Positions 7,313 through 52,666 of a stretch of 64,000 nt of DNA are shown here, in pieces. The stretch comes from Eukaryota sp. GEM-RC1 (lineage: Eukaryota): positions 744,001 to 808,000 of the forward strand of contig JAUFOQ010000002.1 in the NCBI GenBank assembly GCA_040285855.1. The letters run 5' to 3'. The stretch's first letter is position 1. Every line of letters starts with the position of its first letter. The translations under genes were made by a program, and so were the position numbers. The notes beneath the pieces were generated by a model. That model did not search any database and had not been told where the DNA came from. It saw nothing but the letters and a program-made list of their open reading frames with translations.

Positions 7313-9847
7313 GTATCCTCTTTTTTTCTTTTGTATCATATTACTTATCTTTATTTCTTGTCCTTCTTTAGAGGTACTTCGAAGTGAACAGCACGAATTC
7401 TTTTTTCTTTTTGGTTTGATATTTAAACATTGTTTGTTAGTTATGGAATTAAGAAGTTGAACTCTTTTGATGAATGATAAATTCAAGACATTGATCATCT
7501 TTGGAGGAGCAGCAGACCATCTGTAAGGTTTACTATTGGGAAGTGATTGGATTGTTGCCTCTTTTTGTAGCTGATTTTTAAAGGAACTAATGATTTTCAT
7601 GATGTCTTCATCCTTGTTTCTTTTCAGAAAATTTAATAATGTTGGGTTCACTGTAACTGAAGTTTCTTCCATGTCACTTTGAATTGGACTTTTGGTGACT
7701 TCTTCAAGTACAGTGAATGAGCAGTCTGTGACGGTAGTTGTTGATTCTTCGTCTTCCGAACCACTGCTAGTTTCTTCAATGGAGAATGACACGTCATTTT
7801 GTTCATTGATTTCTGAGTTGCTAATGTCCTCCATCAATACATCTTTGTTTTCAATTTCCTCTAGTTCACCGTAATCCATTCCATTGAAACTCCAGTCATG
7901 TTCGTCTTCTACTTCAGTTTCAACGTCGTCATGATCTTCATTATGTAGTGGAGAATCACTATTTTCAATATGAACAGACATAGGTTCAGATTCATCAATT
8001 GATATTCCTACCGTTTGTTTCTGAGGGTTGTTGTTGATAGTTTCAGGATTCGTTTCAGAACTGTCTGCTATTGTTACCTGACTATCTTCATTGCTTGCAT
8101 CATCATCATCATCATATGATTGTGTAAGAATATCGTTTTCATTGACGAGTTGATCGTCATAATCTGTTGGCACATTTACTCTGACTTGAAGTTCTACTGA
8201 CTCCGTTAATTGTTCGATCAGTTCTTTAACCAGTATTTGAATTGTCTCAATTGAATGTGGCTCACTCGTTTCTTGGTTATTATTGTTGTTCTTTTGGGAA
8301 ATTTTTGATTCTTCTTCCATGTTTTGAGTTAAATTAGTATCGATAAACTGCTTTTTCTTTTTCTTTTGCATCATTTGTAATTATTCCTGGACTACTATCA
8401 TGTCCTTCTAACTTTTCGAAAAGTTTTTCTGAAACACCACTCTGTAGCTGGTCAATGCAGGTCAAACAATCAGTTTGATCAGGTGACGATTGAGAGTCTT
8501 GTACAGATTCATTAATGACAACCATTTCTGATTGAATCCCATCAAGTTGATCGTATAGAGACATGTTGTTTGTTTCTGATTTTGAAAGTTCTTCTCGTTC
8601 AATCGATTCCTTTTCTACCAGCTGAGATATAGCATCATCACAATGTATTATGGAGGATTGTGATTGAGAATTGACAGCATCAAAGTCTACTAGCATCATG
8701 GAAGTGGTGGAATCGATGATACTGACACTTTGATCAGTTTCAATGACGTCATTATTACACTGACCTTCATCAATTGGTTGATCGGTGACCATGTCAATTG
8801 GCACATCATTCTTATGTTGTAAACAATCAATTTTGATCGGTGAAGAAGGAATCAAAGAATTGAAATAGTCTATTGATTGATCAAATTGGCTAGCACGTGA
8901 GCTGTCATGTTCTTCATTGCTCAATGTTGATTGCACTCCATCCTCCGTCTGTCCATCATTACATATCGAATCACTTTCGGTAGTAACAATCTTAATTTCA
9001 ATCATAGGTGATGGTCCATTCTCCATTGCAGGAAACAAAAATTGATCTACTTGATCATTGAATCCTTCAGATTCACTGTCCAAAGTACAATAGTGCCATA
9101 TACTTTGACTTTGGGGATAACGGATGATTGACCGTGAGTTATCACCTTTTGCATATTGATCAAGGGAGATTCTAGAAGTAGATGTGGAATCGATTCTGAA
9201 TTCAGTTTCATTATCAGTACTAGAAGTACTGTTAGCATAATCGGAATCGTTGAGAGAGTCTGGGTGATGGAAAGGCTCAATGGGTCTGTGGCGTAATTGA
9301 TTTGTCTTATGTACTGAATGGCGAAGACCATGTCTAAAGGAAGCAAGGATGGATTTGACAGCATCTGTCCCAAATGGAGTTTGTTGGAGTTCAAGTCTTG
9401 GTCTTTTTTAGAGGAGGAAGGCATTGTGTTGGTCTCTTAATGATTTGGTTAGCAATCCCAGAATGTAAACGAGCAGGTTCTTCTGACATTGCACAGAACG
9501 CAGGTAAAGTTTTCATTTTGGGTGAATATCCCTAGCCCCATTTTACCAATTCTCCCACACACCCAATTCCCACAAACTCTTTTTACTTATGGGATATTCT
9601 TTTGGAATGTTTTGGGACTCAAGACTCGACTTAACGAGCATGTCTATCCACGCTTTGGAAGACACCAAAGTGAGGGCTGTTTGGTCCTTTCTCTGGATGG
9701 GGACGATCCATCTTCTGATGAGTCATCAGAGACTCTGATGATGCTTCTGTGAGGATCCTCTTGCGTGAATTTTATTCCCCTTCCCTTTCCTCTCCCCAAC
9801 AATTCCCCCATCTCCTCTTCTGTCGTCTGTTGTGTCCTTTTATACAT
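7271..9847 (-). CDS. Large acidic, low-complexity hypothetical protein (several frameshifts)
   Basis: Overlapping minus-strand ORFs 9047-9424, 8334-9083 and 7271-8374, the last two D/E/S-rich, with a probable further piece from ATG 9847. Both boundaries are uncertain. Confidence 0.5.
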
Positions 9848-10626
9848 GCCATTATCCTTCCTAAGGTTATCTGAAGTACAATCTAGTGCAGAACTTCACT
9901 TCCTTCGTATTCAATCCTAGCTTCTTTCTTCCATTAAAGTAAGTTGAAGTTGTATTTCCCATATATGATTTTAAATATCTGAGATAAATATTGTTTATTC
10001 TTAATTAGAACCAACCAATGTGTGCTGCAAATAGGGATCATTACCTACCGATATATTTGTCTCGCAAAGGCAGTTGCTTCTGCAATTTCCAATTGTTTAG
10101 TCATATAACCATTGGGTTTTTAAGACTGTATATCATTGGTCTATCGCACAGTAGCAATAATCAGTCATATAGAATGCTTAAAGAGAGGACTGGATGTTGT
10201 CACACTTGTTTTCAAGGTGTTTGAGAGAAGTCAAAATGAAGTAAAAGTAGGAACAAAGGAAGATCTGATGATGGGGACTGAGTGTTTCTAAAAGAAAGAC
10301 GAGTCTTGACTTTCTGGCAAAAGACTTCTGATCATTGTGGCCTGAGTAGAGACCGGAAAAGGCGCATCTTAAAAGATAGAATCGTGAATGAAACTAACAT
10401 GAAGATATTCTGAGAGAGTGAGGTATAATGACTAAAATTGTTGAGAGGAGGTAGGATAGTTGTACACCGTATCTAGAGAAGGAGACAAAGTTTTGCCATA
10501 AATTAACCGAGTTGTAAAGTGGAAAGTAAACTGTTGACAAACTAACAATCAAGTAGGAAACTGAATCCTGCCGAGAGGAAAGTGACGAGAACGAATCACA
10601 ATGTCGACAATTGTTATTTCCTTCCC

Positions 10627-11682
10627 ATGTCTCCTGTCAGTCTTCCCGAAGTAGTTCACGGCCCGGAGTATACACTTTATCCTTGTGGTTCATCCTCTCA
10701 CAACCATGGTGACACTATATTTCCCCCGCCTCTTAAGAAGTCTCACATGTCTTCTGTAGATGACATCCCACTGTATTGCCTTATTGATTTTAAAACGGTC
10801 ATTACCGATAGTGAACGACTTACCCCACTCCTTTTCAATGTTAAGAAGAAATCTCTTCCGAAATGCACTACTACAGAATCTTCAACAGAAATTGTTTCTG
10901 AAGAACAAGAGGCTGCTGAAGTTCCAACAATCAGTGAAGAAATTGAAGTGTCCAGGCCAGAGCTGGTACCAAATGCGGAGGATGATCAAATCATCCTTAT
11001 TGTCCTCACATTTATTTACACCAATTTCGTTTCTACTGTTGTCACCAGTAGCAAAAAAACAAGTGATTTTGATGGTGTTCAAACAATTACTTTTCCATCA
11101 GAAGAAGTCATGATTAATGGTCTTATATCTTTACTGTCCGAGAAAAAGCCTAGATTGCTTATAAGTTATAATTCTGAAAAATTATTGTTCCCGTTTTTAA
11201 TTGCACGATGTAAACTTTTGAACATATGTAAACTTTTGAACATCCCCACCACTTTTAATGTGGATGAGCCATTCAGGCCTTTTATTCCCATCTGGTTCTA
11301 TAGATGGTGTAAGCAAAGCGAATTTGGACCATTTATTTCCCTTGACATGGCAAATGTTGTAAAGTCAACCTATGTTTTCAAAGGTGGTAGAGGTTTAAAA
11401 AATGTTTGCTCCAAATTGTTTCAAAAGGCAATACCTAATTTAATTTTATCACCAACTGAATTCAAAACTTACTTCAACCAATTCAAAAAAATCCTAAAAA
11501 TATCAACGGTTAGCCCTGAACGGGAGAGGGAGTTTACTTTGCTTGCTCAAAATATTAAAACTTCCAAGTTATGGATGGATGACAGAAAACGCAACTCTCT
11601 GGTTGAAGATTTGCTGAACAAAATTAAGATGTTGTCCGAATTGAAGAATTATTTTTTGATGAAGAAATTCAGCTTGTTTTAG
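10627..11682 (+). CDS. Degenerate DnaQ/PolB-type 3'-5' exonuclease-like domain; probable N-terminus of the Fanzor protein
   Basis: ExoI-like LIDFKT, SEEVMI...EKKPRLLISYNSEKLLFPFLIARC (ExoII-like) and ISLDMANVVK...GLKNVCSKLF. After a -1 shift at ~11626 comes ExoIII-like KDVVRIEELF, reading on into the Fanzor N-terminus. Confidence 0.6.
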   Translation: MSPVSLPEVVHGPEYTLYPCGSSSHNHGDTIFPPPLKKSHMSSVDDIPLYCLIDFKTVITDSERLTPLLFNVKKKSLPKCTTTESSTEIVSEEQEAAEVPTISEEIEVSRPELVPNAEDDQIILIVLTFIYTNFVSTVVTSSKKTSDFDGVQTITFPSEEVMINGLISLLSEKKPRLLISYNSEKLLFPFLIARCKLLNICKLLNIPTTFNVDEPFRPFIPIWFYRWCKQSEFGPFISLDMANVVKSTYVFKGGRGLKNVCSKLFQKAIPNLILSPTEFKTYFNQFKKILKISTVSPEREREFTLLAQNIKTSKLWMDDRKRNSLVEDLLNKIKMLSELKNYFLMKKFSLF

Positions 11683-14418
11683 ACCGCCCTCCGATTAAAG
11701 TCGTAAAAAAAGGATTGGATAAGGTTTTCAGAGATTATGAAAACATTCAATTAATTAAAATATGTTCTAAACGAAATCAAAAAGCAACTGTGAGGGGGAA
11801 CCACCTTCTTGAAGCATTTGCTTCTACGTGAATTTGAAGATTTTGGAAGAATCGAAGCTGAATCAATAGTCCAAGAAGGAGAATTGATGTTACTGCACGA
11901 TGACCCTTCGTTGTCCATGATTGGAAATGATTCTGAGTCTTCTGACAATTGTAATATCTGCTATAATTACAAAGACTTTTCGGTTCGCTTACCAGATTTG
12001 AGTCCTTTTTGGCTCTTGGATCAATAAGGCACGTTCTCCGACGAATGTATGTGGAGAAAAAAAAGGCTTGCGGTATTTCCAACTTGAAAATGTCAAAAAT
12101 AGAAGCAGAAGCAGTTTTACAAAATGAAAAATTTGATCATTCTTTGAAACAAAAAATCGCATTACACTACTGTAATAATTTTTATCCAATACTTGACTCT
12201 CTGTCTCATGAAATTGGAAGTAACAACATTTCTTTTCCTAATTTGGAGTTTATGTCAGGCATTTATCATTATACGGCTAAACAAATTGAAACCAATTATG
12301 CTAACAATTTGGCGAAATATTTCCACAACTATGTCTTTCGCTACTTTAACATTGTTACGTTGAAGAACTATCGTCTTAAACAAATTAAAGAGCAACACTT
12401 AAAGAAGGAATTGAAATCAAAATTAAATTCCATCAGAGAACTGATTATTGATGGAAACTTTGAAGACATTCCAATTGATGATCATATCATTTTCCCCTTC
12501 CCGCAATCAGAATTGACTTTAATCTTTTTGCATATTTGAAATTCTGTTTGTTCCCTACCATTGCCAAAGGCAAGAATCTTTACTACGCTCAGAAAGTCAA
12601 GCCACTACAATTTCTTTCTCATGCTGTTTATATCAACAGAATCATTCAGTCTTTTTGCTCAATTGATGGAAAACCCTTAAAGGTTAATAATCCGTTCCCA
12701 ATGACCAAGACGTTGGTCCCACAGCATATTAGATTAGATACTGCTTGGATAAACCAAAGAGTTTTAAATTTGAAAGGTTCCGCTAACGTTATTCGAAAGG
12801 AAGTATTTGACTCTGTACTTACCGAAACAGCTATTACATCATCACGATCATTTGGTCTGAAGTATTCTTCGATTGTAACAGATGGCATTTCCTGTTCCTT
12901 GGTTATGATTCGAAAAGATTTGCTGGATGAAAACGGTAACACCTTTGAAGATTTTACCGCAAAACCACTAATATCTTCGGAAAGATATATTGACTCTTTA
13001 ACGTCGGAAGACATTGAAAAAATGAACCTGACAGAAAAGAGAATAATTGGCATTGACCCGAATGAATATGACTTGATGTTTTGCGTATCTCCAAAAACAA
13101 ATGAAGAGATATTATTTGAAGAATTTTCTTGTTCGGACAACAATCCCACGAAAAAACGGCTACCTTCAGAAATGAGACTGAAACAAAAAGGTGGTATTAA
13201 AAAAAGAAAAAAACAATTGAACCAATGGAGACAAACCCCATCTCAACGAGTACGGCTGAAACCAAACCACTTTTTGACCAGCTTCAGGTACAGTACTGGG
13301 GAGAGATCATATGACCGAAAAAGCAAGAAAAATCGGTTAACTGAAAGAAGAAAACTAAAAACTTCCTTCTTTGAAATTACGAAAACAGAAACTGAAAGAT
13401 CGCTCCAAGATTATACAGTCGAAAATTCTAATGGTAGAACTGTTTCTGGTCAAGAAATCCTCGACGAATTTGCTCTTGCCGTCTCTAGAGGACAACAAAG
13501 GTCCTGTTTCAGTGATGAGTTCGAGACTTACATCAAAGAAGCTGAACGGAGTTGTGTATACCTGAGTGATTTCTATGAAGACGATTGGTTTACGAAAAGG
13601 AAGTTGCAAATTTATTCCAACAATCAACAGAGTGAAAAGAATATGTTGGAAAGGTTTAAATTAACCTATGGATCTCCAGAAGACCTTGTCCTTGGTTACG
13701 GGGACTGGAGCTCTAAGGGAAACACAAGAAAAGGTAAAACTCCAGCTATTAGAGGAGCAGAAATCCGAAGAATGTTAAGAAAATTCGGGTATAAGGTATT
13801 TCTAGTTGACGAATACCGTACCAGCAAGTCCTGTTCAAAGTGTGCTGCTCAAGGACTATTTGGATTATGTACAAATGATCCATCTATCAAAGTTTTAGGC
13901 CCAAGAGGACTGCGTCAAATAAGACGGAAGAAGAAGAAACTCAAGGAAAAAGTACTGGTCTACAACCGTAAGGATCCACCGATAAAGAGAAGCTTTGAAG
14001 ACGAGTGGGAGAAGATACAGAAGTCCGTAGAAGTAAAAGCAAAGTCAACTCCATGGGGGCTGGTGAAATGCAAAGGTGCAAGACTTATTGGAATAGAGAT
14101 CTCAATTCTTCGATCAATATCTATTCCATTATCGAAGCCGCCATCAAAGGTCAAGCTAGACCATCTATTCTCGAGAGATCAAAAACTTTAACAACTGATT
14201 TCGAGAGTGGTAATGTTACTTTGAAGAGAGATCGAAAAAAGACTGAAACGAAAAAGACTCGTAAAGAAAGAGAGTGTGGAGAATGTGGACAAACAGGTCA
14301 CGACATACGAACATGTCCGCAGCTAGGTGAGTCAAACCAGAGTTCACCTAAAACTGGATCGAGAAAAGAAAAGGAGGAACCCCAACGAAGGCAGTCAAAA
14401 GAAGAAGATCTCCCTTGA
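11628..14418 (+). CDS. Fanzor1-type RNA-guided RuvC endonuclease (eukaryotic TnpB derivative), frameshifted in this sequence
   Basis: Fanzor1-like blocks IKVVKKGL, TFLKHLLL, YTAKQIETNYANNLAKYF, LYYAQKVKPLQFL, FPMTKTLVPQHIRLDT and IVTDGISCS. RuvC-I IGIDPN (D 13055), GYGDWS, VDEYRTSKSCSKC (E 13811), CKxCKTYWNRDLNSSINI (D 14098). C-terminal CCHC knuckle at 14275-14316. Confidence 0.9.
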
Positions 14419-14444
14419 AGAAATCAGTCCACCATAAACGGTCG

Positions 14445-14572
14445 GGCAGCGCTATGTGTATGAAGCTATCTCAGTCTCACCGTATCATCTCATAGCATAG
14501 CGTGTCTGTGATGCCTAAATGGATATGACCAAAGTGGGAGCAGGATGTACTTTGGGAGGATTATCCATTTGG
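14445..14572 (+). ncRNA. Candidate Fanzor omegaRNA scaffold (two stem-loops)
   Basis: Starts ~26 nt after the Fanzor stop. Hairpin 1: CGCTATG(14450-56)/CATAGCG(14496-502) with inner TATGA/TCATA and outer GGCA/TGCC. Hairpin 2: AAATGGATA(14517-25)/TATCCATTT(14562-70) with inner CCAAAGT/ACTTTGG. Confidence 0.55.
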
Positions 14573-14629
14573 AGTGAAATTCACAGAGGTAAAAAATTAC
14601 TTCCTAACTTCCTCAAGTCCAACCTTCAA

Positions 14630-17600
14630 ATGACTGATGACACTTCCTTTGATACTGCCAATGCCATTTCCGTGATGGAGTTCCGTCAAAACAGGAAACT
14701 AGCCAACTTCTTCTCTTCAGACAGTGCCATAAAACGTCTCAAAAGTCTGCTGCAGTATCTTGATGTATCTCATGAATTTGAACAACGTGCACTCTACTCT
14801 ACTCAGTATTCTCAAATCTACTCTTGCTTTTTAGATGCCATCAAAGCCTATGATTCCAAAAGTATGCAAAATCCATCTCCTTATCCCAGACAAATCTCTT
14901 TCTGCTTCTGACCTCGTAGCAACATGTTCCATAGTCAAGAAACTCATTACTTTTCTCTCCAACATCATTAAAACTAAATGGCAGTACAAATCTCTTGCTT
15001 ACCTCGTCCGCTGCCTCCTTTCACACACCAACAAACACACGGTCAGAATGCTTGGTGTTGAACTCCTCCTCCAACTTATAGATGCTCTCGGCTCTTCCGC
15101 AGACGATCTCCTCCTTGATCTTCTCCCTGGTACTATTGTCTGGACCCCCTTTCTTTCCCCCTGAGGAGAACCTTTCTCTACCTATCATCACTGTTCCAGA
15201 CTATTCAGGGGTGCTGGTAAGTGCAAAGACATCAGCAGCTAAGGTAAGTGATGGTGTTGAAGTGTTGCATTTTATATTATCTTTTATTGATTTTAAAGAT
15301 ATTCGGCGGTTTGTTTTTTATTATGATTTATTGAAAGTTCACATGTTTCCTTACCTTTTCCCAAAGCAAGTAAGGTTTTAGAGCTGAGCCCTAATCTCGA
15401 CCATGATGGGTTTATAACTGGCTGTCCACGTGAACTCCTTCCCGTTCTAGTTGATCGACTAATCGTCTGGCTACAAAAGAGCTATCACCGAGTCGTCATG
15501 TCACGTGATGAGGGTCACTTAGACCTTCTTTTCGACATCCTTGGTCAAGGTATCATCCTCCCAGAAACCATTCCAAACCTCCTCCCAGTCTACAATGATT
15601 GGATCATCAGGGGAAGCTCTCTTCCCAAGTGTTACTTGAATGGAGAGGAGAAGTATGACGCGATTGTGTTGGATCAGTTGTCGTGTATATTTGGGATTGA
15701 AACTGCGACTGACGTTGATTCTGCTATTCTCTCTGTTATATCTCTCTTCAAAGATCTGCCGGTTAACAGACCTCTGTCTGGGAGTATGTGGAAACATTTA
15801 CTTCAATCTATTCTTAAATCAAGTGAGAAAATGGGAGGGGCAAGAGTTCACTCACGACGTCTGTATGATGTGATGATGACGTTGTTCTCTGGAAGTCTTG
15901 TGAAAGACGTTGACTTATGGACTGAGTTTGTCTCTCATTGTCGAGGATTGGTAATCAGTAGAGATGGGAAGGTGTTTGTTGAGAGGTGGGAGAAGTTTTG
16001 GTTAAATGTTTCAAATGTTTTAATTTTGATTGATGTTCAACGAATTAAGAATGTTGATTACGACTCAGCATCATCCGACGTTGACGAGACATCAGTCCCA
16101 GCCACCACTGACACGCCACCATCTGACACGTGGCACTTCACTCCCCCTTGAAGACCTATCAGAAGAAGACCTTATCTTTGCTTGGTATAACACCCTCAAA
16201 TCACTACCATTTTGTCAAGACGAAGAAGGGAAGGAGTTCTATGATGTTGTCAATCAAAACGTTTCCCCTTATTGTCGGGGGTTAGAAGTTATTTGCCAAA
16301 TTTTTGATTCCTTCTCTCTAATCAAGAAACCGACTGTTGCCCAATCAGAATCATTTCTGACTGTGTTCTCTTCTCGCTCTGACGTTCTTAGGATCTTCGG
16401 TCCTTGGCTTTTCTCTGCCCTGGGGATCTCCTCCAAGTATCTCGCTTCTCCCTTTGACGAATCTGGACTTAGTTGTCTTGATGACGTGGATGATCACGTG
16501 GTTGCAGTCGGGGTTAAGTTGTTGTCGAGAGTTTGCTTTAAAACAGATGATTCTCGAGATTTGAGGGGTAATGAGGGGTTTTTGTATATGTTTTTGGGGT
16601 ATTGTGAAGCACTTCTACATCGAAATTGTTTTTCTCCACCGGCTTTGTCAGTTCTGGTTAATTTATTCCCATTGTATAATGGAATTCTTGGAGATTTAGA
16701 CTCTGAGTCGAATATTTCACAAAATTTAATATTGTCCATGATACCAGCAATCATTTTCGCTTCCTCTTCTCTTCTTTCTAATGTTGTTCGCCTCCAAACC
16801 ATTGTTGAATCTGGACAGTCCGTCAATCGCTCGTTTCCTTCAATGACTGAAGTTGTTGGTTCTTTATTACGTCAAATAGAACTTTCTTTTGATCTTTTAT
16901 TATCAATTGACCTGCAAAGTAGTTCGACTTCTGAGCCTTCGTCACCTAATTTAGATATTTGTGGAACATTTAGACGTGTTATCACGACTCTCTATGATTT
17001 CTCTAAAGATTCAAATAACTCCAAATTTTGGAATAGTTCAACAAGAACAATCATGTCGGTTTTCTTCACCACTCTAAGTAAATTCAGTTCTTTTATTCCT
17101 TCTAGTCAAGAACTATTTAGTAAAGCTCTGATTGAATTATCCGATTTAATTTGTGATTTACTAACAAACTCAAATGAGAATCTAATTACGACAGCTTCAT
17201 CAGTTTTTGAACTTTGTTGTCCCTCTATTTCAACTTCTCCTTGCCCAACAGTCTCACGAATTCTGTCTAGTGTGTTTTCAGCATTTAATGATTGTATTAC
17301 AATTATGATTATTAAATTAAACGAAAAGCAGTTTATTGGAGAACTTATTTATACTGTATTTTCCTCTTTAATTGCTCTCTCTTTGAAATTCCCGTTTCTT
17401 TTGTTGTCTAACAGAGCTAATCTTGATCATTTATTGGGCAACGTGCAGTTATTGGCGTCTGGTGAGACTGCTCTAATTAAATTGTCGAAATTTTCCAAAA
17501 TTTCAAATTCTCCCAAATCAGTTGCCCTAAAAGTTCCAGAAGATTTTCCCAGTGCCATCTTCATTTCTTCTCTACAACTTTTGTTAGCTACCTTACGTTG

Positions 17601-21186: not shown

Positions 21187-21754
21187 ACTGGTTTGTATAA
21201 TTAGTCTCATCAGCAATTTTGTCTCCTTTGAATTTTGTCTGTGAGACTATAATCCAAATAAGGTATGTATATATTTCTATTTCTGTAATTTCTTTGTTTT
21301 TCATGTGCCCTAGCTTTGAGGATTACTCACATGTCACTTCATGACCGATCGTTGCAGCATTTGGTTTCGTTTAAGTACGTATCACTCGACTTCAGGACCA
21401 TGCTGTTATTATCTCCGACGAAGATAATTTGGATTCTGATGGTATTACGGACTAGATAAGCTACTAGTATAGTTAGACGTGGACTCGTTTTAAGCAAATA
21501 AACATCACTCAAATGTGCAAAATGTTTGAAGAACATAATGGAAAATGGTCTGAGTGTTTTAATGGGACTAATATTATCAATGATCATTAGTTTTTCGCAA
21601 TGAATAGTATTAAGCAATGGTAAAGAAGTCTTCAAATTGGTATCACCAATTGAATTAGCCTCCTCAATAAATTGTCTGTGAGACTAATTCTAAAATTGAT
21701 GATGAAAACTTCCTTACAAATTAGTCTGAGTGAGACTAATAAGACAAACCAGTG
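21187..21754. mobile_element. MITE of the CACTG/TTAGTCTCA family
   Basis: TIR ACTGGTTTGTATAATTAGTCTCA vs TGAGACTAATAAGACAAACCAGTG (21/23 match). TA follows the right end; the left end is slightly eroded. Internal GAGACTA motifs. Confidence 0.75.
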
Positions 21755-21925: not shown

Positions 21926-23952
21926 CTAAAAACCTAATTCCGCTGCAGTTTTAACTATAGCCTTAATACTATCTTGTAGCTCTTTAGGAATACCCTGAAT
22001 CTCTACTCCAACTAAAAATCCACTAACAATAGCACTAGTCGCTTCATCTTCCGTTAAACCACGAGACTGTAGATACTGGATCTTTTCGGTAGAGATTCTA
22101 CCAACAGAAGCTTCATGAGATAGCTCAGATAGTCGATGATTACCATCAATCTGAGGTAAAGCCCAAATCTTTCCAGCAGTATCTTCACCAATCAAAAGTC
22201 CTTGACATTCAACGTGACCACGTGTATCAGGTGCATTTCCAACACAAAGAGCACGTGCAATCACGTGGCCCCCTGAAGAAATAATTCGAGAAACAACTTC
22301 AGCAGTAGATCCTCTTCCATTCAGTATAGCTCTAGAACCAGCATCAACAACGGTTCCCTCTCTCGCATAAATGATTGAGTTGAAGCGAGCAGAAGCATTC
22401 TCTTCTAGTGTGGCAAGAGGATTCAACTGAACCTTGGTGACAGGAGCTAAACAAACGTAATTAGAAACAAATGATCCATTTCTAGCAACATGAGAAGCTG
22501 AGCGAGGGTAGGCTTCAACCGAGGTACACCAACGATGAATCATAGAGAAGGTGATTGTGGCGGATTCTTCAACAAAGAATTCAGAAATACCGTAATGTTT
22601 ACCATTAGCTGAAGAAGAGCAAGTGCAACCACTGATGACGTGCATTTCTGATCCAGGCTTGGCAATGAGGACGTTATGGACATGTTGAATATCAGCATTC
22701 TCAAGTCTAAGGTTTGCTTCAATCGGATGCTCACATTTAGCATTCTCATGAGCAATAATGACATATCCTTGGGGATTTCCAAACTTTTCTTGTTCGTCCA
22801 CGTGTTTGGTGACGTAATCAGCATCTTTCTTAACCACCTTCCACATATACTTCTCCATCCAATCGTACTTTTCAAGGGCATCTTTCAATGATAAAACCTC
22901 AATATCAGGATTAACAGTCAGAGCAGTTTCAAACTGACAGTCACGTTGCATGTATTCACCAGAGTTCTGAGGTAATTTCAACACAGCATCAGCCTCTTGA
23001 CCTTGAATGACAATCTCATGAAGAGTATCTAGCCTAGGAATATCAGCATCCATGACCATGTCTGTGGTCAATTTGACTGGAGCAGGGTCAACAGAGAGAC
23101 GAACTCGAGGTTCAGGACGGGGAGCAGCGGTTTGAGAAGCAAGACAAATGGTACAGTCACCAGTACAGGACTGACAAGGATCATACCCAAACTTAGCAAT
23201 GGTTTCAAGGATACGGCGAGGTTCGCCACTACAAGAGATGCGTCCATCAACCATAACATAAGCAAGATCAGCTTGGATAAAGTCAAGAATAAATCCAGTG
23301 TGAGTAACAACGAGACCTCCTTTTCTAATAGAGGATGGAGATTGGTCAGACCTTGTTAGTAGAGTATTAGCAATCTGCCCTATTACTGAAAGGTTCTCAA
23401 CATCAACACCAGATTCTGGCTCGTCGAGCATAACCATGACAGGTTCAGTGAGGAGAAGCTGGAGAGACTCTGAGCGCTTGATTTCACCACCAGAGAAGCC
23501 CTTATTGACTTGGCGGGAGAGGTGGTTGTGCATGTTGGTCATACGAGCAAGTTTGTTGATACGGACCGCATTGTCTTCCTCGAGATAAGTTTTGTCAGTA
23601 AAGGGATCTGTTTTTGTTGATTTCGTTCAGCAAGCACATTGAGTAAAAATTCGAGTTGTAGACCATCAACAGTTGGAGGTCGTTGGAACATCATTCCAAC
23701 ACCAAGGCGCGCACGTTCATCGGTAGTCATGTTAGTAATGTCACGTCCTAAGAAATAGATGTGGCCTTGTGTAACCTTTAAGTCACCAACACCCATGATA
23801 GCTGAGAGAAGGGTAGATTTTCCAGAGCCATTCTTTCCATAGAGCACAACAGTTTCGCCAGCATGGACACTCAAATTGACACCCTTAAGGATAGGGGTAT
23901 TAGATTCGGCGGCAGAAACATGGAGGTTTTCAATACGTAACAGTTCAAACAT
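21926..23952 (-). CDS. sufCB: Fused SufC-SufB (SmsCB) Fe-S cluster scaffold, ~675 aa, one -1 shift at the A5 run 23611-23615
   Basis: ABC ATPase part: GKNGSGKST, FQRPP, FSGGEIKRSE, MLDEPESGVD, VVTH. Then Cys linker CQSCTGDCTIC and a SufB beta-helix (QHVHN, GISEFFV, GHVECQGLL, LSHEASVGRI...YLQSRGLTEDEA...GF). Confidence 0.92.
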
Positions 23953-24405: not shown

Positions 24406-25059
24406 TAAGGCTGTTAAAAAGTTAGGATAAGATCATCGGAACTCGGGTCAGGTCATGTCTCAGGTCAGATCAAGATACCTCATATCAGGTCTCGGGTCAG
24501 GTCAAGATGCCCCACTTCGGGTCTCGGGTCAGGTCAAAGATACCTCATATCAGGTCTCGGGTCAGGTCAAGATGCCCCACTTCGGGTCTCGGGTCAGGTC
24601 AAGATACCTCAGATTCGGTCTTCTCTGCTCAATGTATGTGCTGTAGTTGAAAATCATGATGGATTGACAGCACAGATCTAATGTGATGTATCAAAATGTT
24701 CTACACTAGCTAAATATTCTGTCATGTGTGTATTGTACAATCTTCCAGTTTTGAGAATGACACGGTTTACAAGTTGACTATGCTCAAGCTCTTGTCTGTC
24801 TGAATGCATGATTAAAATTTGGTTTTGAATTAAAAGATTTATTAAGCGGTTGTTTTTCTATTTTTGAGTTCAAAATAACAAACAACTGAACAGCAACTAT
24901 AAAACACAACAGTTCTCCCATCGGGTCAAAGGTCAGGTCAAGACATCATGCAACAGGTCAAAGGTCAGGTCAAGATACCTTGTCTCGGGTCAAAGGTCAG
25001 GTCAAGATAGGATCATGACTTTGACCTGACCCGTGACCTGATATCTTTTAACAGCCTTA
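24406..25059. mobile_element. Non-autonomous hAT-type element (654 bp)
   Basis: TIR TAAGGCTGTTAAAA/TTTTAACAGCCTTA; 8-bp TSD GTATTTTT at 24398-24405 and 25060-25067; subterminal arrays of (TCG)GGTCAGGTCAAGAT at both ends. Confidence 0.9.
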
Positions 25060-37917: not shown

Positions 37918-38535
37918 TTATTTATACAAACACTCCCTCCAAACATGTCCAAGTTTACCACAGCAAGTACAACTGGCAATTCTGTGACCGTCATAGCGGT
38001 GTTCACACTGATTTGTTTGATGTGAATCACTGTAACAATAACCACAACTTGGACCAGAGTCGTACCGGCAAGTATCTGGTGAACATTCACTTCCACACTT
38101 GTAACAGAAATCATTCTCTGCAAGATCCAGTTCATCGAAGCTAGAGTCAAAGTATAGAACTACAAACGCATTCAGAGGGCAGTTGTCCTCTGATTCTTCA
38201 TGTAAACGTCCACACAATAGACAAGGAAGAATGACAGGACAAAACCGTGCAATGTGACCATATTCCTGACATCTATAACATTGCACCGTCTCATACTTAG
38301 AGGGGTGAAAGAAATATCTGAAGTGAGATTGTTGGGGTTCGTCTTCTTGGTCAGTGACGGTCAGGAGTATGTCGGAGATGTCCTGATGTTGGTCGCAGTG
38401 TTGAAGTAAACCTTCAAAGCGATCAAATGCAGATATAGCTTCATCTGCTAGAGATGGATTTTCTTCTATTGTTGGTGTTGTTGATTCCCCTAAAAGCTGT
38501 TGGTCAAAAATCAGCCATTCATCGTCATCAGACAT
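37918..38535 (-). CDS. Air1/2-like multi-CCHC zinc-knuckle protein
   Basis: RYF followed by CYRCQEYGHIARFC and further knuckles, ending CTCCGKLGHVWREC. Confidence 0.7.
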   Translation of the reverse strand: MSDDDEWLIFDQQLLGESTTPTIEENPSLADEAISAFDRFEGLLQHCDQHQDISDILLTVTDQEDEPQQSHFRYFFHPSKYETVQCYRCQEYGHIARFCPVILPCLLCGRLHEESEDNCPLNAFVVLYFDSSFDELDLAENDFCYKCGSECSPDTCRYDSGPSCGYCYSDSHQTNQCEHRYDGHRIASCTCCGKLGHVWRECLYK

Positions 38536-38603
38536 GCATTCAGTCGTTGAGACGGTTTAAAAGTTCAAGAGAAAAAGCGTTAGTTTCACTAAAATCTTCA
38601 TTA

Positions 38604-38786
38604 TTTTTGTTTGAGTAGGTTAACGTTTGCGCTGTTTGCTTCAATGTACAGATACTTTAATTCAATTTTAGGTAAATTGCTTGGTGAAGGACAACAGGAT
38701 CGTCGTCCAGATACTTTAGTTTGTGTCTTACAGTTACTTGTTTCTAAAGCAATTTCTTCTCTGATTGGTCATAAACCCCGGCTTTA
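38604..38786 (+). mobile_element. 3' remnant of CRE-like non-LTR retrotransposon (copy A)
   Basis: AGTAGGTTAACGTTTGCG...CATAAACCCCG shared with the copies ending at 52053 and 61568. Confidence 0.75.
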
Positions 38787-39981
38787 TATCTTATATTTTA
38801 CAGTCAGATAAAGATAATGCAACAGACAGAAAACTACATGCACTCATAGGGCTCTATCCTCAAAATCTCTTTTGGTTGTAGACAGGAAATCAGAAATCTT
38901 GTGTCTAACAGTCGCCTAAAGAAATGAGACTAGTCTAAATAAAATATAAATAATTATAATGATTTTACTACACCAGCAGTTGATCCGTTTGTAAAAGTCT
39001 ACAAGGACTCTATTTTGAATGATTCTTATGGTCATCGTCAAAAGGCTGAACAGCAAAAGTGTTCTAATTATGCTGAGTACTCGATGAGAAGAAAGTTGCA
39101 TCTACAACTAGAAATTGGTTTCAAGATATTCTGACTTTTTCTTGTGAAAATAATTTACGGTTATATGGTCAGACATTCGTTTAAACATGAGCTGAAAGAA
39201 AGTTTCGCATATGCTTTGAATAAATCTAACTCAAGTAAATCGTAAACAAACAAAATTGATTTGAAATTATTAAGTGCTTACGTTTGGGTTTGGTTCCTGT
39301 TGAATTGCTCGACAATGCTGAATGGGTATGTAACCATCGTCGCAATGCAACTTTTAGACATGAAATTAATTGTCCCAAATTTATTCAATTTCGTTCTGTT
39401 TTTCATAATGCTGTCAGAGATTTTATAATATAAGTTGCTAAAAATAATAGCAATACTTTTAAGCACTTAAAAACACATATATTGTAAACTGTGTTGAATG
39501 GCTATTCTGTCACGAATTCAAATATTTCATATAAGAACAAGCTTAATGTGATTAAACCCGAATACTGATGAGCCAATAGTGATCATCGTGTAGAATCACT
39601 CTCTTCATAAAAAGAAGGGACACCATTTGGTTAAAGAACGCGAAAGCAGCTACACTCAACAACTCAAAACACAAGTCTATTTTACGGCTCTGAAATCGAT
39701 TTTGTGGAGAGCTTTCGTCAACCAATTGAACCCAGCCACTGCAGACTTTTACAACTTTCAATCACTCTTAGATTAGCAAGCAGTTGCTGATTTAGGAACA
39801 AACAATGAAAACTTGGATGAGAGTGGATGAATAGATTCCGGAGAATATTGTGGGAGGTCAATAGAGAACAGCATGGTTGCAGAGATTTGAAAGAGTTGTA
39901 GGAACACCGTCTGGTGTCTGTGTAAACACTGTAAAGGAGATGTTTCCAAAACTGGATCGTTTACTTTTGATGTCAAAATCT

Positions 39982-41919: not shown

Positions 41920-42649
41920 TTGAGTTTATGTTTACTTGTGGAAAAACAGGTTAGAACCACCCAAACCTTGTTCCCAAGATGATATTTTTTGTTAGCAGGC
42001 ACACAGATTCGTTTTTTTTTGGAATAAATAGTAGAATACTATTGTGAATCAAAGAGATTGATAAAGTCATCAGTTTATTGATTATAAATACAATTTTTAT
42101 CCTTTTAGAAATCATAGTTTCATGAATGAAATCTGGAAATACTGAATTGCCTTTCATTGAAAACATCAAACTTAAAATTATGGGATATTCGTTCCCAGAT
42201 TCTAATATATTTAAAGGCTATTTTTCAAAGGAAAAATAGCCTTTGAAGGAGAAAACTGTTGTCTTTTGGCTACTTACACGGAAAGAACATCTCGGCTTTC
42301 TCTGCCATAGATAAACGAGATTTCTTGGATATCGTTTGTTGTAAGAGTACTGTGGTACTGTGTGTATTATTATCCCCCTTTTGGATAGATTGACCTTCAC
42401 ACCACCATTAAAAATCAGTAAACGACCTATTATTATAATATCACATTTAGTGGATAATCTACTCAAAAAAACATTGTTTCGCTACACATATCTGATCAAA
42501 TGGGTCATAAGGTACCTTGAATGGTTCCGTTGCACTCTTCTGAGAACATTGATTCAGTTGGTAGATGAAACAGTGAAGACATTATGAGCAAACTATAGAT
42601 GATTGACTTGAAATGTTGAGGAAAGTTCTTAAAATACATCCTTCTCTTT

Positions 42650-45600
42650 ATGCTGATTATATACACGTTTTTAGTTTTGATCGTCTCCATCGTCGACGGA
42701 ATCACGATCAACAGCAATACTGTTCTACCGACAAACAGTCTGTACTCGACAGTTACATGGAATGCAGGTCACCTTGAGGCCCATAATCTTCGTGTTACTG
42801 GTACCTTACGACTACGAGGATCAACGCCTCGGGAGTTTACGGGATCTATAACTGCGGATCACATATCGGTGGAGGGTGAAGTCCAAATTCTGTGTAGTGA
42901 CGGTGTATCTTCTCAAGCAATTATCGACGCCACCACGCTCCATGTTCTTCCCTACTTCTCTTTATCGAGTACACCTTCCTTTGCTGTCACTCAGCTGATC
43001 GACGTCGATATGGGCTATCTTTCGTTAGACACAACCCTGCGTGCACTGTCGCCTGTTGACTGGAAAATTTCGATGGCTGTTGTCGAGCTATATAACACGT
43101 CTGAAGTCTCACCCAACGATCCTCATGTCTCCACAAATGTTGACATCATGAATGGTGTTTTAGAACTAACGTCAGGACGTCCAATGTCGGTAACAGGGAG
43201 TTGTCATTTAGAACGTGGTCGTTTGGGTGGACATGATAATTTTTCAACATTAAACTTTATCTCTGCGGTCGCAGAATTTCAACTCCCCACAATCACAATT
43301 GATGGCACGTCTCACCTATCGCACTTCGTCTTCTGGCGTCCTCGAACTGAGCTTTCCAACTTAGGCCATCTTACTGTTGGTCATCGTGCTCAATACTCAC
43401 TTCCGTTTCTTTACTTTGAGGAACATACTGGGATCATCAACCACGGCACTCTTATCTTGGATGATGTTCTGGCTTTCTACCACTACAACCACCGTCCAAA
43501 TAGTCCTCACTTTGCCTTCATTTCCAACACGAATGTGATGGCTAAAGACTCTTCAGATCCACAAGGCCGCTTTTTTGAAACCAATCTCCATTTCTCCTCC
43601 TCTGGAACCTTTACCTTGGCCTTTGACAACACTTTCAGACTCTTTGGATCCTTTCCTTACTCACAGCGTCACTTTGTTCATGGCTCAGCTTACCTTGAGG
43701 ACGAGTCACTCTTTCTCCTCTACCAAGATTCCCTTCATTTCACTAATCAATCTCAAGTCTTCGGTGACTCTCAACGCTTCTACATGGAAACAGATCTGTC
43801 TTTGTTGCAGTTCGATCACCTTTACGATGGTAATCTCGTCATGGAGCAAGACTATGGTACCGCTATTTGGAGTAACAACTCTATCTTTCTACTTGATAAA
43901 GCCATTGCTCGGAACAATGTCATTTACAAGATTTTCGAAGATCAATCAACACAAGCCAGTTTCATGGACCTTGTGCAATTAACTGACAAATCTCGGGTCT
44001 CATTCTTTGACATTCACAAGGAGTTAACTATTGATAAGGTTTTGGTCAAGGACGAAGCATTGCTTAAGATGTATTGGAGAGATGGTACCGCCACCTTTTT
44101 GACGAAATTGTAGTTCATGATGGGACAATGATTGCAGGACCAAACTCTCGCAAGGTAGAAATCAAACAGTGGTTCTACGTTCTGAGAGGAAAAGTTTCTT
44201 TTGAAGCTGTTGGAGATTTTATGTTGTTACCTAATACCACTATAGATAGAGGTGAAGTCATTATCGGAGATGTTGGGGGTCCTGTTCTATTAAATCGAGA
44301 GTTACAAGTACTCAGTGGAAAACTTCAAATTGGCTTCGTTGATGGGGACTTTACCATTACTGGATCAGTCATTTGTCGTCAGAGTACAATCTCGATTGCG
44401 GGGATCAATGGATCATTTTTGATTGATGGAAGTGTTGACATGGTACAGTGTCAATTTACTGTTGGTCCAGTAAGTGTTAATGCTGTTATAAGTGGATCTG
44501 TCGTTGCTGATCGTTCTCTGTTACGATTTGATCATATTTTCAAAGTTTTTGAATTGCATCAGTTTTTAAATTTCTTTCACACCTCGACATTTAGAGCTAA
44601 AGCTGGACAAACAAATTTCAATGATTCAATTACGTTTACTGATTCAATTTTTGATCTAACTGTTACTGATTTTGAGCGTGAACTAATTTTTGATCTAGTG
44701 TTAACACGTTCCACGTTTGATGTAATTCATAATGCAAATTTTATTACATTTCCTAAAGCCATCGTTTCTGGTATTTCAACCAAAAATTCTATAGTAACAA
44801 TTCAGAATTCTGGTATTGGACTTGATTTTGTCTTGTATGAAGGAGATTTAACTTGCACTCATTCACGTATTTCTATTGATCTAATTGCTACCAATCATGA
44901 TGCAAAGGGATTCAAACTGCAGAATTGTAATTATCTTGTTTCAAAAATAGGCAATAATTCAAATTTCGAGTCAAATATTGAGGCTGTTCAGTCTTCTGTA
45001 GTGCTGGAAGATATTGCTCAAAATTTGAATTTACCTGGATTTTTGAATTTTGTACAGTCCTCAACGTTTAGAGCTAAAGCCGGACAAGCAAATTTCAATG
45101 ATTCAATTACGTTTACTGATTCAATTTTTGATCTAACTGTTACTGATTGTGAGCGTGAACTAATTTTTGATCTAGTGTTAACACGTTCCACGTTTGATGT
45201 AATTCATAATGCAAATTTTATTACATTTCCTAAAGCCATCGTTACTGGTATTTCAACTAAAAATTCTATAGTAACAATTCAGAATTCTGGTATTGGACTT
45301 GATTTTGTCTTGTATGAAGGAGATTTAACTTGCACTCATTCACGTATTTCTATTGATCTAATTGCTACCAATCATGATGCAAAGGGATTCAAACTGCAGA
45401 ATTGTAATTATCTTGTTTCAAAAATAGGCAATAATTCAAATTTCGAGTCAAATATTGAGGCTGTTCAGTCTTCTGTAGTGCTGGAAGATATTGCTCAAAA
45501 TTTGAATTTACCTGGTTTTGTGAATTTTGTACAGTCCTCAACATTTAGAGCAAAAGCCGGACAAGCAAATTTCAATGATTCAATTACGTTTACTGATTCA

Positions 45601-48600
45601 ATTTTTGATCTAACTGTTACTGATTTTGAGCGTGAACTAATTTTTGATCTAGTGTTAACACGTTCCACGTTTGATGTAATTCATAATGCAAATTTTATTA
45701 CATTTCCTAAAGCCATCGTTACTGGTATTTCAACTAAAAATTCTATAGTAACAATTCAGAATTCTGGTATTGGACTTGATTTTGTCTTGTATGAAGGAGA
45801 TTTAACTTGCACTCATTCACGTATTTCTATTGATCTAATTGCTACCAATCATGATGCAAAGGGATTCAAACTGCAGAATTGTAATTATCTTGTTTCAAAA
45901 ATAGGCAATAATTCAAATTTCGAGTCAAATATTGAGGCTGTTCAGTCTTCTGTGATATTTGAATTTGTTTATAACTTTGTCACTGTGGATCAATCCATTA
46001 TTTTGACTGAATCTTCAAACTTAGAAGTTAATGCTAAATGTTTTTCTGTTGATCGTCTTGTATCCTACGACTCCAATGTTTTTCTTACCATTCGAAGTCC
46101 TCTTTGTCGTTTAGAACTTGATGCTGAGATTGTTCGCGGAGGAATTGATATCCATCATAACTCCAGTTTAATCACGTTTCCTATAATTACTATTGATGAC
46201 GTTATAATAACAATCATTAATGATGGCAATGATCCGAATGATGGCGTGGTTTTTGCCGATGATTTCAATTGTTTAAATTCCTCTATATTTATCAATCTAA
46301 TTAATTCAAACTTTAATGCTTCTTCTTTTCTCTATTCTATTGTATCTTTGAAATTTCAGAAATTAGTCACAATGCGTCATTTTTCGGTAACTTTTCCGCC
46401 ATCCATTCATCTCTTCTTCTTCCTAATGTTGGGGATGAGCTGTTTTTCCAAGATCTGGTTCTTTTAAATAATTCCATTTTACTATCCTCTTTGGACAAAA
46501 GTCAATTCCATGGTAGTATTGATCTTTCAAATTCTGTTTTTGACCTGAACGTGAGAAAGATTGCGTCTGATCTTGTTTTCCGATTATTCTCAGTTTCTTC
46601 AGAATTCTTCCTCAATCATTCAAGTAGTTCAATCATTTTTGATTCATTACAGTTTCACGACGAATCTCTTATTGATATTTATAACTCTGTTCATGGTGAT
46701 GACGTGATGGAGTTTGTGGGATCAATGACTTGCTCCGGCTCCAGTTTAATAGCAAATAGAGTGTCGTCAAATTTGATTGGTGATGTCATTATTCTAGATG
46801 ATTGTCATCTCTTTGTTGAGGCAGTTCACAAGGATCTATTAGTTTCCTCGTCTGTTACCGCTACAAACTCTACTATAGAATTTCCTTTTGTTCAGCAAAC
46901 ATCCCGCCTTTTTAATCTAACATTAACAGACTCAGATTTTTCAGCGTCTTCTGGTACTTTTCATCTTTCAGTTGGACTCTTGACTGACTCGGTCTTCAAC
47001 CTTTACAATGTTACCAATAAGGCTTTTTTCTATGATTTGGTCTTTTTTATCAGGTACTTTTGATGTATCTCGATCTCTTGATGTTGTGTTTGCTGGAAAT
47101 TCAGAGCTTTGGAACGGTAGTCTGTCTATTGAATGTTTCAGTTTATCCACTTTATCCGATACATCTCTCTCAATACTTGGAGGTGTAGTTTACTGGAACA
47201 TTTCCTGGGTTTCCTTTCTGGACAATAGTGTTTTTCACTTTTCAAGTGGATATTGGAGTTTGATTACTTTGAATGTCTTTGTTTACCAGTCACACTTTTT
47301 AATTTCAGGGGGATTGGTTCTTGTTGGCGGTCAATCAAAACTGATTGACGAGTTGTTAACAGCTGATCAATCAGTCATTGACGTTTATGGTGTGGAATTC
47401 TCTTCAATTCATGGCCGTGTTTCTTTAATCTCCTCTGTCGAATCTTATGTGTTCCTAACCGACGTCACCATTACTTCATGTAAATCATCTTACTTGATCC
47501 GAACGAAATCAACAATGTTGACAATTCAAAATTCGACAATTTTAAATATTTCCGGTTCTGTTATGAGCTTGGCTACAGCTTCGATCGCTAGTGTTGACAA
47601 TGTTCAATTATTCAATATATCATCATCATTGCCTATATTGGATGTTGATTCATCTCTTGCCAACTTCACAAACTTATCATTATTAAAGATCAAGAGTACC
47701 TCGTCATTTTCTATTTCTTCTAAAAGTAGGGTAATGCTATCACTGATTAAGACTAATGATTCTGTTTTCCTTACTAGTACCATTCGTACTGAATCATCGG
47801 AAGTAGTGGTCAGGAATTGTTCTTATAATCTTGTCAGTTCGAAAAATTTAATATTTGTACAATTATCTGAATTTTTCATGTCCAGAATTACTTTACTAAA
47901 TTCAAAATTTTCAACAATTGGGACTTTTATCTCATCATCAGCAGTTCTGTCTTTCTCGAACTCACTTTTCCAAGATTCCATTGGTGACGTTGCATTTGAC
48001 CTCAGACACAGTACTGTATCCATCAACGACTTAACACTTCTTCCTTCACTTTCCCTGAGTCAATGTGCTTTACTGCTTACATCTTCTATCATTGAACTGA
48101 CTACAGTCACCGCGTTTGACTTGAACACTGTTTTGCTGGTAAGTTCTCGGTCACAACTAATGGTTAGAAATGTTCAAGTAATCAATTATTATTCGCCCGA
48201 GCCCTTGCTTTCATTGGTGAGATCAACTGCTGGTGTTTCCGATATGCTAGTAATCGATTCGTATTCTTCTCTGTTTTCCAGTGTGTTTTCTGATTTATCC
48301 CTTTCTTCATCTTCTTTCTCAAACATATCATCACATGTCGTGTATTCTGGTCAGCATTCTGATCTAAGTGTTGATAGTTGTATGTTTAACCATGGGTTAG
48401 ACTGTGCAATAATAGCCACTGATTCTATTCAAATTGAAATTTTAAATTCCAGTTTTAATAATAATATTGGAAAATGTGGAGGTGGAGTTCGTGTGAACGA
48501 GTTTAACGTTTTACGTATAGGCAATTCCACTTTCTCCTCCAATACTGCTGTTCAAGGTGGGGCTTTGTGTCTGAAGTCGTCGTCAAATCCACTACATTTT

Positions 48601-50743: not shown

Positions 50744-51204
50744 CTATTCTGTTTGGGCAATATGCACACATTTTATTTATTTAACGATAGATTTGTTATA
50801 AATTCAATTTGTGTTTAGTTTCTTGAAGTAGAATTGTGAGGTTGACAGTTGTAACTTCCGTTTGAATAAGTACAAATACATTTATTGGATATATTTTGGT
50901 GACAAGTTTTCTTTCCCCTCATTGCCTCGCTGTCACTTTAACACAGCCTCGTATAGAGGAACTCTACAAATGGTGTTGTTCTTAGTGGATGGTGTGGACG
51001 AGAACGTCATCATAGTCTACTTTGGGTGTTTTACTATACAGTGATTAAGGTAACTCCTCTTATCATAACCTTCAAGGCATCATACTGCTCGTGTACTCCA
51101 ATAAGCCTACACACTATTTGACGATTTATGGCCTTCAGGTCTTTTGAAGCATTCTCCATGTCTTTGTGGTTCAAAGGCTTCAAATTTTCATCATTTATAA
51201 GGTA

Positions 51205-51413
51205 CACTGGTCACAATATTTAGTCTCAGTGGAAAATTAGTCTCAGTTCAGAATTAGTCTCACTGAGACTAATTTATGTTTTGCGTCTTTTCGACATTTT
51301 AGAGGCAAATTTCGCTAGATGAAAATTAGTCTCAGTGAGACTAATTTATGAATAGACCATTTTGAAACTAGGTTATGAATTAGTCTCACTGAGACTAATT
51401 GTTGTGACCAGTG
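51205..51413. mobile_element. MITE (209 bp), CACTG/TTAGTCTCA family, TA-flanked
   Basis: TA-CACTGGTCACAATATTTAGTCTCAGTG ... CACTGAGACTAATTGTTGTGACCAGTG-TA; internal palindromes TTAGTCTCA(C/G)TGAGACTAA. Confidence 0.9.
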
Positions 51414-51415
51414 TA

Positions 51416-52053: not shown

Positions 52054-52110
52054 TTGTATTGACGAGAAACAGAATCTACGGTTCTTTAAAAATGAATGTT
52101 CTTTTAAGTA

Positions 52111-52661: not shown

Positions 52662-52666
52662 TACTA

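Follow-up and report, generated by a model that had tools for sequence, protein, structure and literature searches.

Positions 10627-14418 of a 64,000-nucleotide (nt) stretch of DNA from Eukaryota sp. GEM-RC1 (contig JAUFOQ010000002.1; this stretch is called the window, and all coordinates are positions in it) are read here as one copy, broken by frameshifts, of a Fanzor1 element that is present in multiple copies and in whose protein a PolB-type exonuclease precedes the Fanzor. A single origin among skoliomonad-like protists is likely for the fusion, which would have served there as a cut-and-trim homing enzyme, and its exonuclease is predicted to be dead in this branch; the reading as a whole is given a probability of about one half. 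The exonuclease-Fanzor1 fusion as an architecture, judged from its relatives, is very probably real.

As deposited, the window has no single open reading frame (ORF) spanning 10627-14418, and the translation of 10300-14700 puts the motifs in three frames. When the region is joined over five frameshifts, six stop-free segments are obtained, which sum to about 1,263 amino acids (aa), or about 1,265 aa with the break codons, and no nonsense codon is met along the joined path. The joined reading runs from a PolB 3'-5' exonuclease through a Fanzor1 with an intact RuvC D-E-D triad to a CCHC knuckle (Table 1). An original prediction, made from the letters of the window, had proposed these three modules in this order and a size of about 1,260 aa, and the motif coordinates and joined frames confirm it. 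The reading of the window copy as one protein leans on its homologues.

When the Fanzor frame was used as the query against 6,940 candidates (proteins of 997-2,845 aa), the sole match was P0001, a 1,324-aa protein of Eukaryota sp. TZLM3-RCL annotated with PF03104. A full HMMER search gave 1,150 matches at an E of 0.001, and the best 150 of these 1,150 were examined. The search for homologues with the same fusion found two families in TZLM3-RCL. Family A (P0001, P0006 and P0007) has nine members on six contigs, two of them 1,732 and 1,755 aa long; family B (P0013 and P0168) has four members on three contigs, and P0013 is 1,473 aa long. The complete fusion proteins are of 1,324-1,755 aa, with exonuclease and Fanzor1 in one predicted chain. 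P0013 matches the window collinearly, both in the exonuclease (E 5e-23) and in the Fanzor part (E 6e-65). Nine of the 13 proteins of the two families span the junction from ExoIII to Fanzor in one chain, and their alignment to the window is gapless there. The single exonuclease-Fanzor1 polypeptide that had been proposed thus finds support in P0001, P0006, P0007, P0013 and P0168, which are intact predicted fusions.

The upstream ORF matches Pfam PF03104 with 46.1 bits against a cut-off of 23 (E 5e-12), a match above the curated cut-off that agrees with the PolB/DnaQ layout suspected earlier. Only one of its five catalytic residues is kept: the D of ExoI is present, whereas its E is replaced by K, the D of ExoII by L, and the Y and D of ExoIII by D and K. 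The ExoI and ExoII changes had already been pointed out, and the exonuclease of the window is predicted to be catalytically dead. It keeps 27 of the 53 columns that are invariant between families A and B (alignment A1). Its identity to P0013 is 33.7%, which is above the 23% (58 of 250 columns) between the exonucleases of families A and B.

P0006, P0007, P0013, P0168 and P0170 keep the D-x-E, F-D and Y-x3-D motifs, and in the first four of them, the RuvC triad is kept along with all the exonuclease catalytic residues. The exceptions are P0001, with D changed to E in ExoIII, and P0005, with E changed to K in ExoI. Since the DEDDy residues are retained in both families of TZLM3-RCL, the fusion is read from the sequences as having begun as a two-nuclease enzyme, the catalysis of the exonuclease being lost in the window's branch. 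For the same reason, the earlier idea of an extra nucleic-acid-binding module holds for the inactive copy of the window but not as the whole story. A 92%-identical paralogue labelled GEM-RC1, P0185, has the same starting Met and the same ExoI and ExoII losses, and stops short of ExoIII through a frameshift of its own. As these losses are held in common, the inactivation would be older than the copying of the family.

As for the origin of the domain, the exonuclease of P0013 matches Pfam with an E of 5e-13 and the PF03104 clusters of the Atlas at 0.95, and its best solved match is Pol delta. The candidate donor polymerases, Pol delta and archaeal PolB, score alike; in the Atlas, the exonuclease has as neighbours PF03104 clusters of eukaryotic, viral and archaeal origin. 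An Atlas search with the whole of P0013 gave no usable match.

In the Fanzor part, the 569-aa frame at 12482-14188 matched only three solved sequences by phmmer, all of them Fanzor1: SpuFz1 (8gkh, E 5e-13), GtFz1 (9cer) and PpFz1 (9cf0). The Fanzor1 motif is given as D-X(125,275)-[TS][TS]-X-X-C4 finger-X(5,50)-RD (PMC3627910). The window has IDPN at 13052, YRTSKSCSKC at 13814-43, the second Cys pair across the fifth break and WNRD up to 14100, with about 254 codons between D and TS. Fanzor1 is also defined by a RuvC triad whose rearranged E lies six residues before the zinc finger (PMC13565253), and this arrangement is seen in VDEYRTSKSC. The RuvC residues of the window are thus the D of IDPN, the E of DEYRTS and the D of WNRD.

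A model of residues 266-1443 of P0013, built from 118 sequences, has a mean predicted local distance difference test (pLDDT) score of 66.5 and a confident Fanzor part; its template-modelling (TM) score to SpuFz1 is 0.76 over the target. The top seven Foldseek matches are all Fanzor1 (E 2e-19 to 4e-14), while the Fanzor2 structure 9b0l comes at E 0.03. By its own sequence and by the modelled fold of its relative P0013, the Fanzor of the window is placed with Fanzor1 and not with Fanzor2, TnpB or Cas12, which are more distant. The exonuclease of the P0013 model is mostly below a pLDDT of 50, though its order of strands and helices fits an RNase H-like fold, and the WED strand of the Fanzor begins about 25 residues past the ExoIII helix. 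A single-sequence model of the window's exonuclease reached a pLDDT of 36.

The fusion is rare among Fanzors. Among the best 150 of the 1,150 representatives, 105 are at least 550 aa long (median 671), and a profile built from alignment A1 found the exonuclease in P0013 only. Of 67 proteins scanned with Pfam, two (P0013 and P0168) had PF03104, and a search around P0001 returned the protein itself and one ordinary Fanzor. In a quick tree (midpoint root, no bootstrap) of 67 rows, i.e., 11 skoliomonad rows, the first 55 other matches by identifier and the window, taken from 130 that passed a coverage filter, the window and 12 skoliomonad rows fell on one branch with a Shimodaira-Hasegawa approximate likelihood-ratio test (SH-aLRT) value of 98. 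All the exonuclease carriers tested fall in one clade, and the single branch is consistent with a single capture. Neither viral contigs, scanned with alignment A1, nor metagenome contigs, scanned with the Fanzor fragment, gave a confirmed locus.

In the literature, the word 'exonuclease' is absent from the main text of PMC3627910, PMC10711439, PMC10530073, PMC10432273, PMC13565253 and PMC11423790. The supplements searched mention neither exonuclease nor PF03104, Skoliomonas or metamonad, and their sequence tables may hold unlabelled long Fanzors. Full-text searches brought up no natural fusion of a Fanzor or TnpB with an exonuclease in titles or abstract openings, with subscription papers and Repbase outside their scope. 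The earlier remark that the architecture was not recognised as described thus agrees with the literature searched. As an architecture, this lineage-restricted natural fusion of Fanzor1 and a PolB exonuclease is well supported by the sequences, and it appears to be undescribed within that literature.

The breaks of the reading frame deserve separate attention. Frameshift-aware alignments to P0168, P0015, P0024 and P0160 need five of them, at ~11656, ~11805, ~12013, ~12525 and ~14073; an earlier alignment of this kind to P0006 recovered the C-terminal part only. At the junction, a scan against four intact homologues scored 185 at 11656, in a run of six T, against 128-146 at 11626-29. Since 11656 scores best, frame 1 most likely continues through the ExoIII helix (EDLLNKIKMLSELKNYF). 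The original prediction had set this break at 11626, where the fit is poorer, and the helix 'DVVRIEELF' that it drew from there is probably out of frame. Its indels at ~12015, ~12530 and ~14075 correspond to needed breaks, but those at 11760, 11783 and 11798 collapse to one. Frame 1 meets a stop at 11680-82, and the Fanzor frame, as stated earlier, has no ATG of its own ahead of the WED strand. A single base change at the junction of the window restores the gapless alignment with the homologues.

Introns were considered as the cause of the breaks and rejected. None is possible at the fourth break and none is donor-like at the first, while candidate introns at the second, third and fifth would delete residues that align with homologues. 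Four of the five breaks adjoin a run of at least five identical bases, against a background of 12.7% of 28-nt windows (P about 0.001; the stretches were chosen around the breaks, and the background is the window's own). Frame changes are also found in host genes of the window, five of 11 having no donor-like intron to account for them; the other six junctions have candidate introns and were left out of the error count. For the named relatives, assembly is reported to have combined Nanopore reads with Illumina correction (bioRxiv 10.1101/2023.05.03.539051). It is moderately likely, from the sequence context, that the five breaks are long-read assembly errors rather than decay. Against this, the density of breaks in the element exceeds that of most host genes. 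The 18-nt duplication private to the window copy fits decay, as does the frameshift of the paralogue P0185 at a different place. Homopolymer slippage also happens in vivo.

The knuckle stands apart from the core of the fusion. It is present after RuvC-III, where it had been predicted, but it is not part of the core design: its carriers are 16 of the 193 proteins examined, all 16 labelled GEM-RC1 or TZLM1-RC, and none of the 13 from TZLM3-RCL. By this distribution, it is a lineage-specific module. In GEM-RC1, the cluster of P0022 (26 members) is a large and recently amplified group of related Fanzor1 proteins, mostly predicted as fragments, and one 644-aa form in it has an intact RuvC triad and the knuckle. 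For the GEM-RC1 family of P0173, only the C-terminal part is predicted.

Other modules are found at the N-terminus of the relatives. The canonical 2A motif GDVEANPGP, described in PMC3708506 and by itself no proof of activity, lies upstream of the exonuclease in four TZLM3-RCL proteins, and a variant of it in one. Within the N-terminal 150 aa of P0006, P0007, P0013, P0168 and P0170, the 2A motif is accompanied by a similar upstream peptide, in families that are otherwise less than 30% identical. This suggests a common 5' module or carrier element for both families. No 2A motifs in Fanzors of DNA elements were found in the literature searched. In P0006 and P0007, a Ulp1/C48-like domain with His and Cys motifs occupies residues ~170-345, between the 2A motif and the exonuclease; the Pfam E for this family A domain is 4e-4 to 1e-3, just below the cut-off. 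From the Ulp1 domain and the knuckle, a MuDR element may be considered as a candidate carrier. Neither a 2A motif nor an Ulp1 remnant is present upstream of the window's copy.

Fanzor1 RNAs are reported to lie 3' of the Fanzor1 ORF (PMC10432273), as do the candidate hairpins here. The stretch 14419-14600 folds into two long hairpins, with a z of -2.6 and one of 200 shuffles as stable. The hairpins lie at 14448-588. The fold has -45.0 kcal/mol, and one of 244 GC-matched windows is as low, the boundaries being picked after the fold; a blind scan with fixed 130-nt windows gave no clear signal. Rfam had no match for the candidate omega-RNA, except two sub-threshold chance matches. For the ends of the element, 9400-10626 and 14420-14680 were compared for inverted and direct matches, and even the best did not surpass those of random stretches. 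Paralogues of the element are present in multiple copies across many contigs.

A possible role for the fusion can be pictured from what is proposed for its relatives. Such nucleases are proposed to cut empty sites and restore the transposon by gene conversion (PMC13565253). Fanzor1 cuts fall 14-21 nt beyond the target-adjacent motif (TAM), and those of SpuFz1 at 16-17 nt on the non-target strand and 20-21 nt on the target strand (PMC10432273). Such a cut would leave a TAM-side 3' end of about 16 nt, whose sequence is that of the flank past the element, with no match to the element itself. Since this end mismatches the donor at the junction, it would have to go before a polymerase copies the element in. 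A tethered 3'-5' exonuclease could remove this tail in cis and also block clean re-ligation. A parallel is the homing of a T4 intron, to which the polymerase proofreading exonuclease and DexA contribute via 3'-5' degradation (PMC2988022, PMC12153337). This cut-and-trim role, drawn by analogy, stands a little below even odds. Slightly less probable is the full proposal of a natural single-chain RNA-guided enzyme, in which a captured proofreading exonuclease acts in cis on the enzyme's own guide-directed breaks and drives homing with no need for trimming by the host; the protein would be a modular polyprotein (2A, Ulp1, knuckle) belonging to a transposon group not yet described. For the window's branch, the domain would still fold but be inactive, and may have been kept as a grip on single strands or 3' ends or as a scaffold; trimming would then fall to enzymes of the host, and the knuckle would add nucleic-acid binding.

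Several points weigh against this reading. The window's branch was amplified with a dead exonuclease, as P0185 indicates, and trimming by the domain would thus be dispensable at least there. The window yielded neither a transposase nor a terminal inverted repeat nor a target duplication, so that excision, which restorative homing requires, is unsupported here. Engineered exonuclease fusions impaired the editing by MmeFz2, whereas DNA-binding fusions helped it (PMC12923547); a binding role would therefore fit as well as trimming or better. The intact proteins are gene predictions that may contain predicted introns, and the low-confidence exonuclease of the P0013 model gives no geometry relative to the cut.

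Four other explanations were weighed. The one that survives best, unlikely as it is, takes the domain mainly as an aid to DNA binding or unwinding in all families, with catalysis being incidental. It would explain why the window's branch retains the core, with an identity to P0013 above that between families A and B, and not the catalytic residues, and the activity of MmeFz2 is indeed raised by DNA-binding fusions (PMC12923547). Nevertheless, all the catalytic residues are kept in two families whose exonucleases have diverged to 23% identity, and this is difficult to account for unless catalysis was under selection. Somewhat less likely again is that the exonuclease is captured cargo of a carrier transposon or a virus-derived polyprotein, which acts on transposon ends or is released, uncoupled from RNA-guided cutting. 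The Ulp1/C48 domain of family A and the 2A motif of both families speak for such cargo, and PMC3627910 names DEDDh nucleases among the accessory proteins of P and piggyBac elements. However, the 2A motif precedes the exonuclease instead of separating it from the Fanzor, and the junction is tight and gapless across three families, unlike the variable Ulp1 and knuckle modules.

A quite improbable alternative has the guide RNA or transcript as the substrate of the exonuclease, which would trim the 3' end of the omega-RNA to guide length or protect it by binding. Some DEDD enzymes do cut RNA. Fanzor RNAs are said to end 14-15 nt past the element and would need 3' trimming (PMC10432273), but all the domain matches are to PolB-type DNA exonucleases, and the 104 other near-full-length Fanzor1 representatives among the best 150 of 1,150 do without an exonuclease. 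Finally, a PolB fragment might just lie beside an ordinary Fanzor, with frameshifts or gene prediction creating the fusion. Such an artefact is suggested by the frame 1 stop and the five breaks of the window, but is very improbable and largely refuted already, as nine proteins of two distant families cross the junction, one base change restores the alignment and the Fanzor frame lacks an ATG before the WED strand.

The exonuclease-Fanzor1 fusion can be compared with several known systems. Like Fanzor1 (SpuFz1, GtFz1, PpFz1), it has the C-terminal D...E-x-x-TS-C4 finger-RD motif, the D-P-N of RuvC-I and the fold seen in the P0013 model; like Spu-1, it belongs to multi-copy elements without their own transposase, with hairpins, here candidate ones, 3' of the stop. 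Unlike Fanzor1, it is twice the usual 600-700 aa (PMC11423790) and has an N-terminal PolB exonuclease, an optional 2A motif, Ulp1 protease and CCHC knuckle, and no terminal repeats found in the window. With the exonuclease of family B DNA polymerases (PF03104; Pol delta, archaeal PolB), it shares the ExoI-II-III layout, the helix after ExoIII and, in the TZLM3-RCL families, the catalytic residues; in contrast, it has no polymerase domain, is fused to the WED of a Fanzor and has lost the catalytic residues in the window's branch. The homing of the T4 td intron with 43Exo and DexA likewise involves a homing-type cut away from the insertion site and a PolB proofreading exonuclease, but there, a separate phage exonuclease works with a protein-guided endonuclease, whereas here, the two would sit together in one RNA-guided chain. 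Engineered fusions (TREX1/2 and T5 on MmeFz2) also pair an RNA-guided nuclease with an exonuclease, and TREX2-SpCas9 is reportedly another fusion with this pairing. Such fusions are, however, artificial, and those on MmeFz2 impaired editing (PMC12923547).

Table 1. Parts of the fusion element and their positions in the window
Feature	Position	Strand	Evidence
Likely start codon and N-terminal low-complexity leader	10627..10782	+	Paralogue P0185: same Met, identical over most of first 140 aa
PolB-type DEDDy 3'-5' exonuclease domain, predicted catalytically dead	10783..11655	+	PF03104 E 5e-12; tblastn of P0013 E 5e-23; alignment A1
ExoI IDFKT	10783-97	+	Motif coordinate
ExoII SYNSEKLLF	11164-90	+	Motif coordinate
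In-frame 18-nt tandem duplication, private to window copy	11208..11243	+	Perfect direct repeat D14; six-residue gap in P0185
ExoIII position EDLLNK	11605-22	+	Motif coordinate
Exonuclease-Fanzor junction, frameshift 1, best placed in T6 run	11653..11668	+	Junction scan; gapless homologues; no donor-like frame-restoring intron
Fanzor1 WED/REC region, frameshifts at ~11805, ~12013, ~12525	11658..13051	+	Frameshift-aware alignments to P0168, P0015, P0024
Fanzor N-terminal PPIKVVK	11688-708	+	Motif coordinate
Fanzor1 RuvC and C4 zinc finger (CSKC ... C-x-x-C), frameshift 5 at ~14073	13052..14190	+	phmmer to SpuFz1 8gkh, GtFz1, PpFz1; alignment to P0160
RuvC-I IDPNEYD	13052-72	+	Motif coordinate
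RuvC-II VDEYRTS	13805-25	+	Motif coordinate
RuvC-III WNRD	ends 14100	+	Motif coordinate
CCHC zinc knuckle in basic C-terminal tail	14275..14316	+	Sequence; zf-CCHC_6 E 6e-4, below cut-off; motif in 16 paralogues
Stop TGA	14416-18	+	Motif coordinate
Candidate omega-RNA scaffold, two long hairpins just 3' of stop	14419..14590	+	Folding statistics

The window is gene-dense eukaryotic DNA, in which a Pfam scan found a V-ATPase subunit, SNAP, kinases, Tfb4, Slu7 and a SufC-SufBD fusion, and the element is placed between host ORFs. No transposase or viral gene was found among the 37 window ORFs scanned. An insertion of a giant virus is unsupported; the flanking ORFs match ordinary eukaryotic families or nothing.

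Other features of the window were also observed. The SufC-SufBD (SmsCB) fusion gene at 21926-23952 (- strand) is in two frames, split near 23600. A very long Ser/Phe-rich gene at 42620-50424 (+ strand), probably for a surface protein, has 477-nt internal repeats and five frame changes. A degraded repeat occurs in three copies (38614-38788, 51731-52052 and 61240-61566), one of which is adjoined by a Gag-like ORF with several CCHC knuckles (37918-38556, - strand). The ORF at 51425-51997, which has no Pfam match, resembles the C-terminal nuclease region of a retroelement without long terminal repeats. Nested inverted repeats of a palindromic unit of ~23 nt, like small non-autonomous transposons, lie at 51200-53400 and 21190-21740, and 32-nt tandem units lie at 24440-25044, with an inverted copy about 450-500 nt away.

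The fusion offers a natural template for engineered nuclease-exonuclease pairs, an approach that did not succeed with a Fanzor2. A single protein and two point mutants would make it possible to test the homing model proposed for eukaryotic Fanzors, and the active and dead versions of the exonuclease, side by side, make a natural comparison. Fanzor1 proteins have been described as uniform nucleases of 600-700 aa; a lineage with a second conserved nuclease shows what a transposon-borne RNA-guided nuclease may need once the cut has been made.

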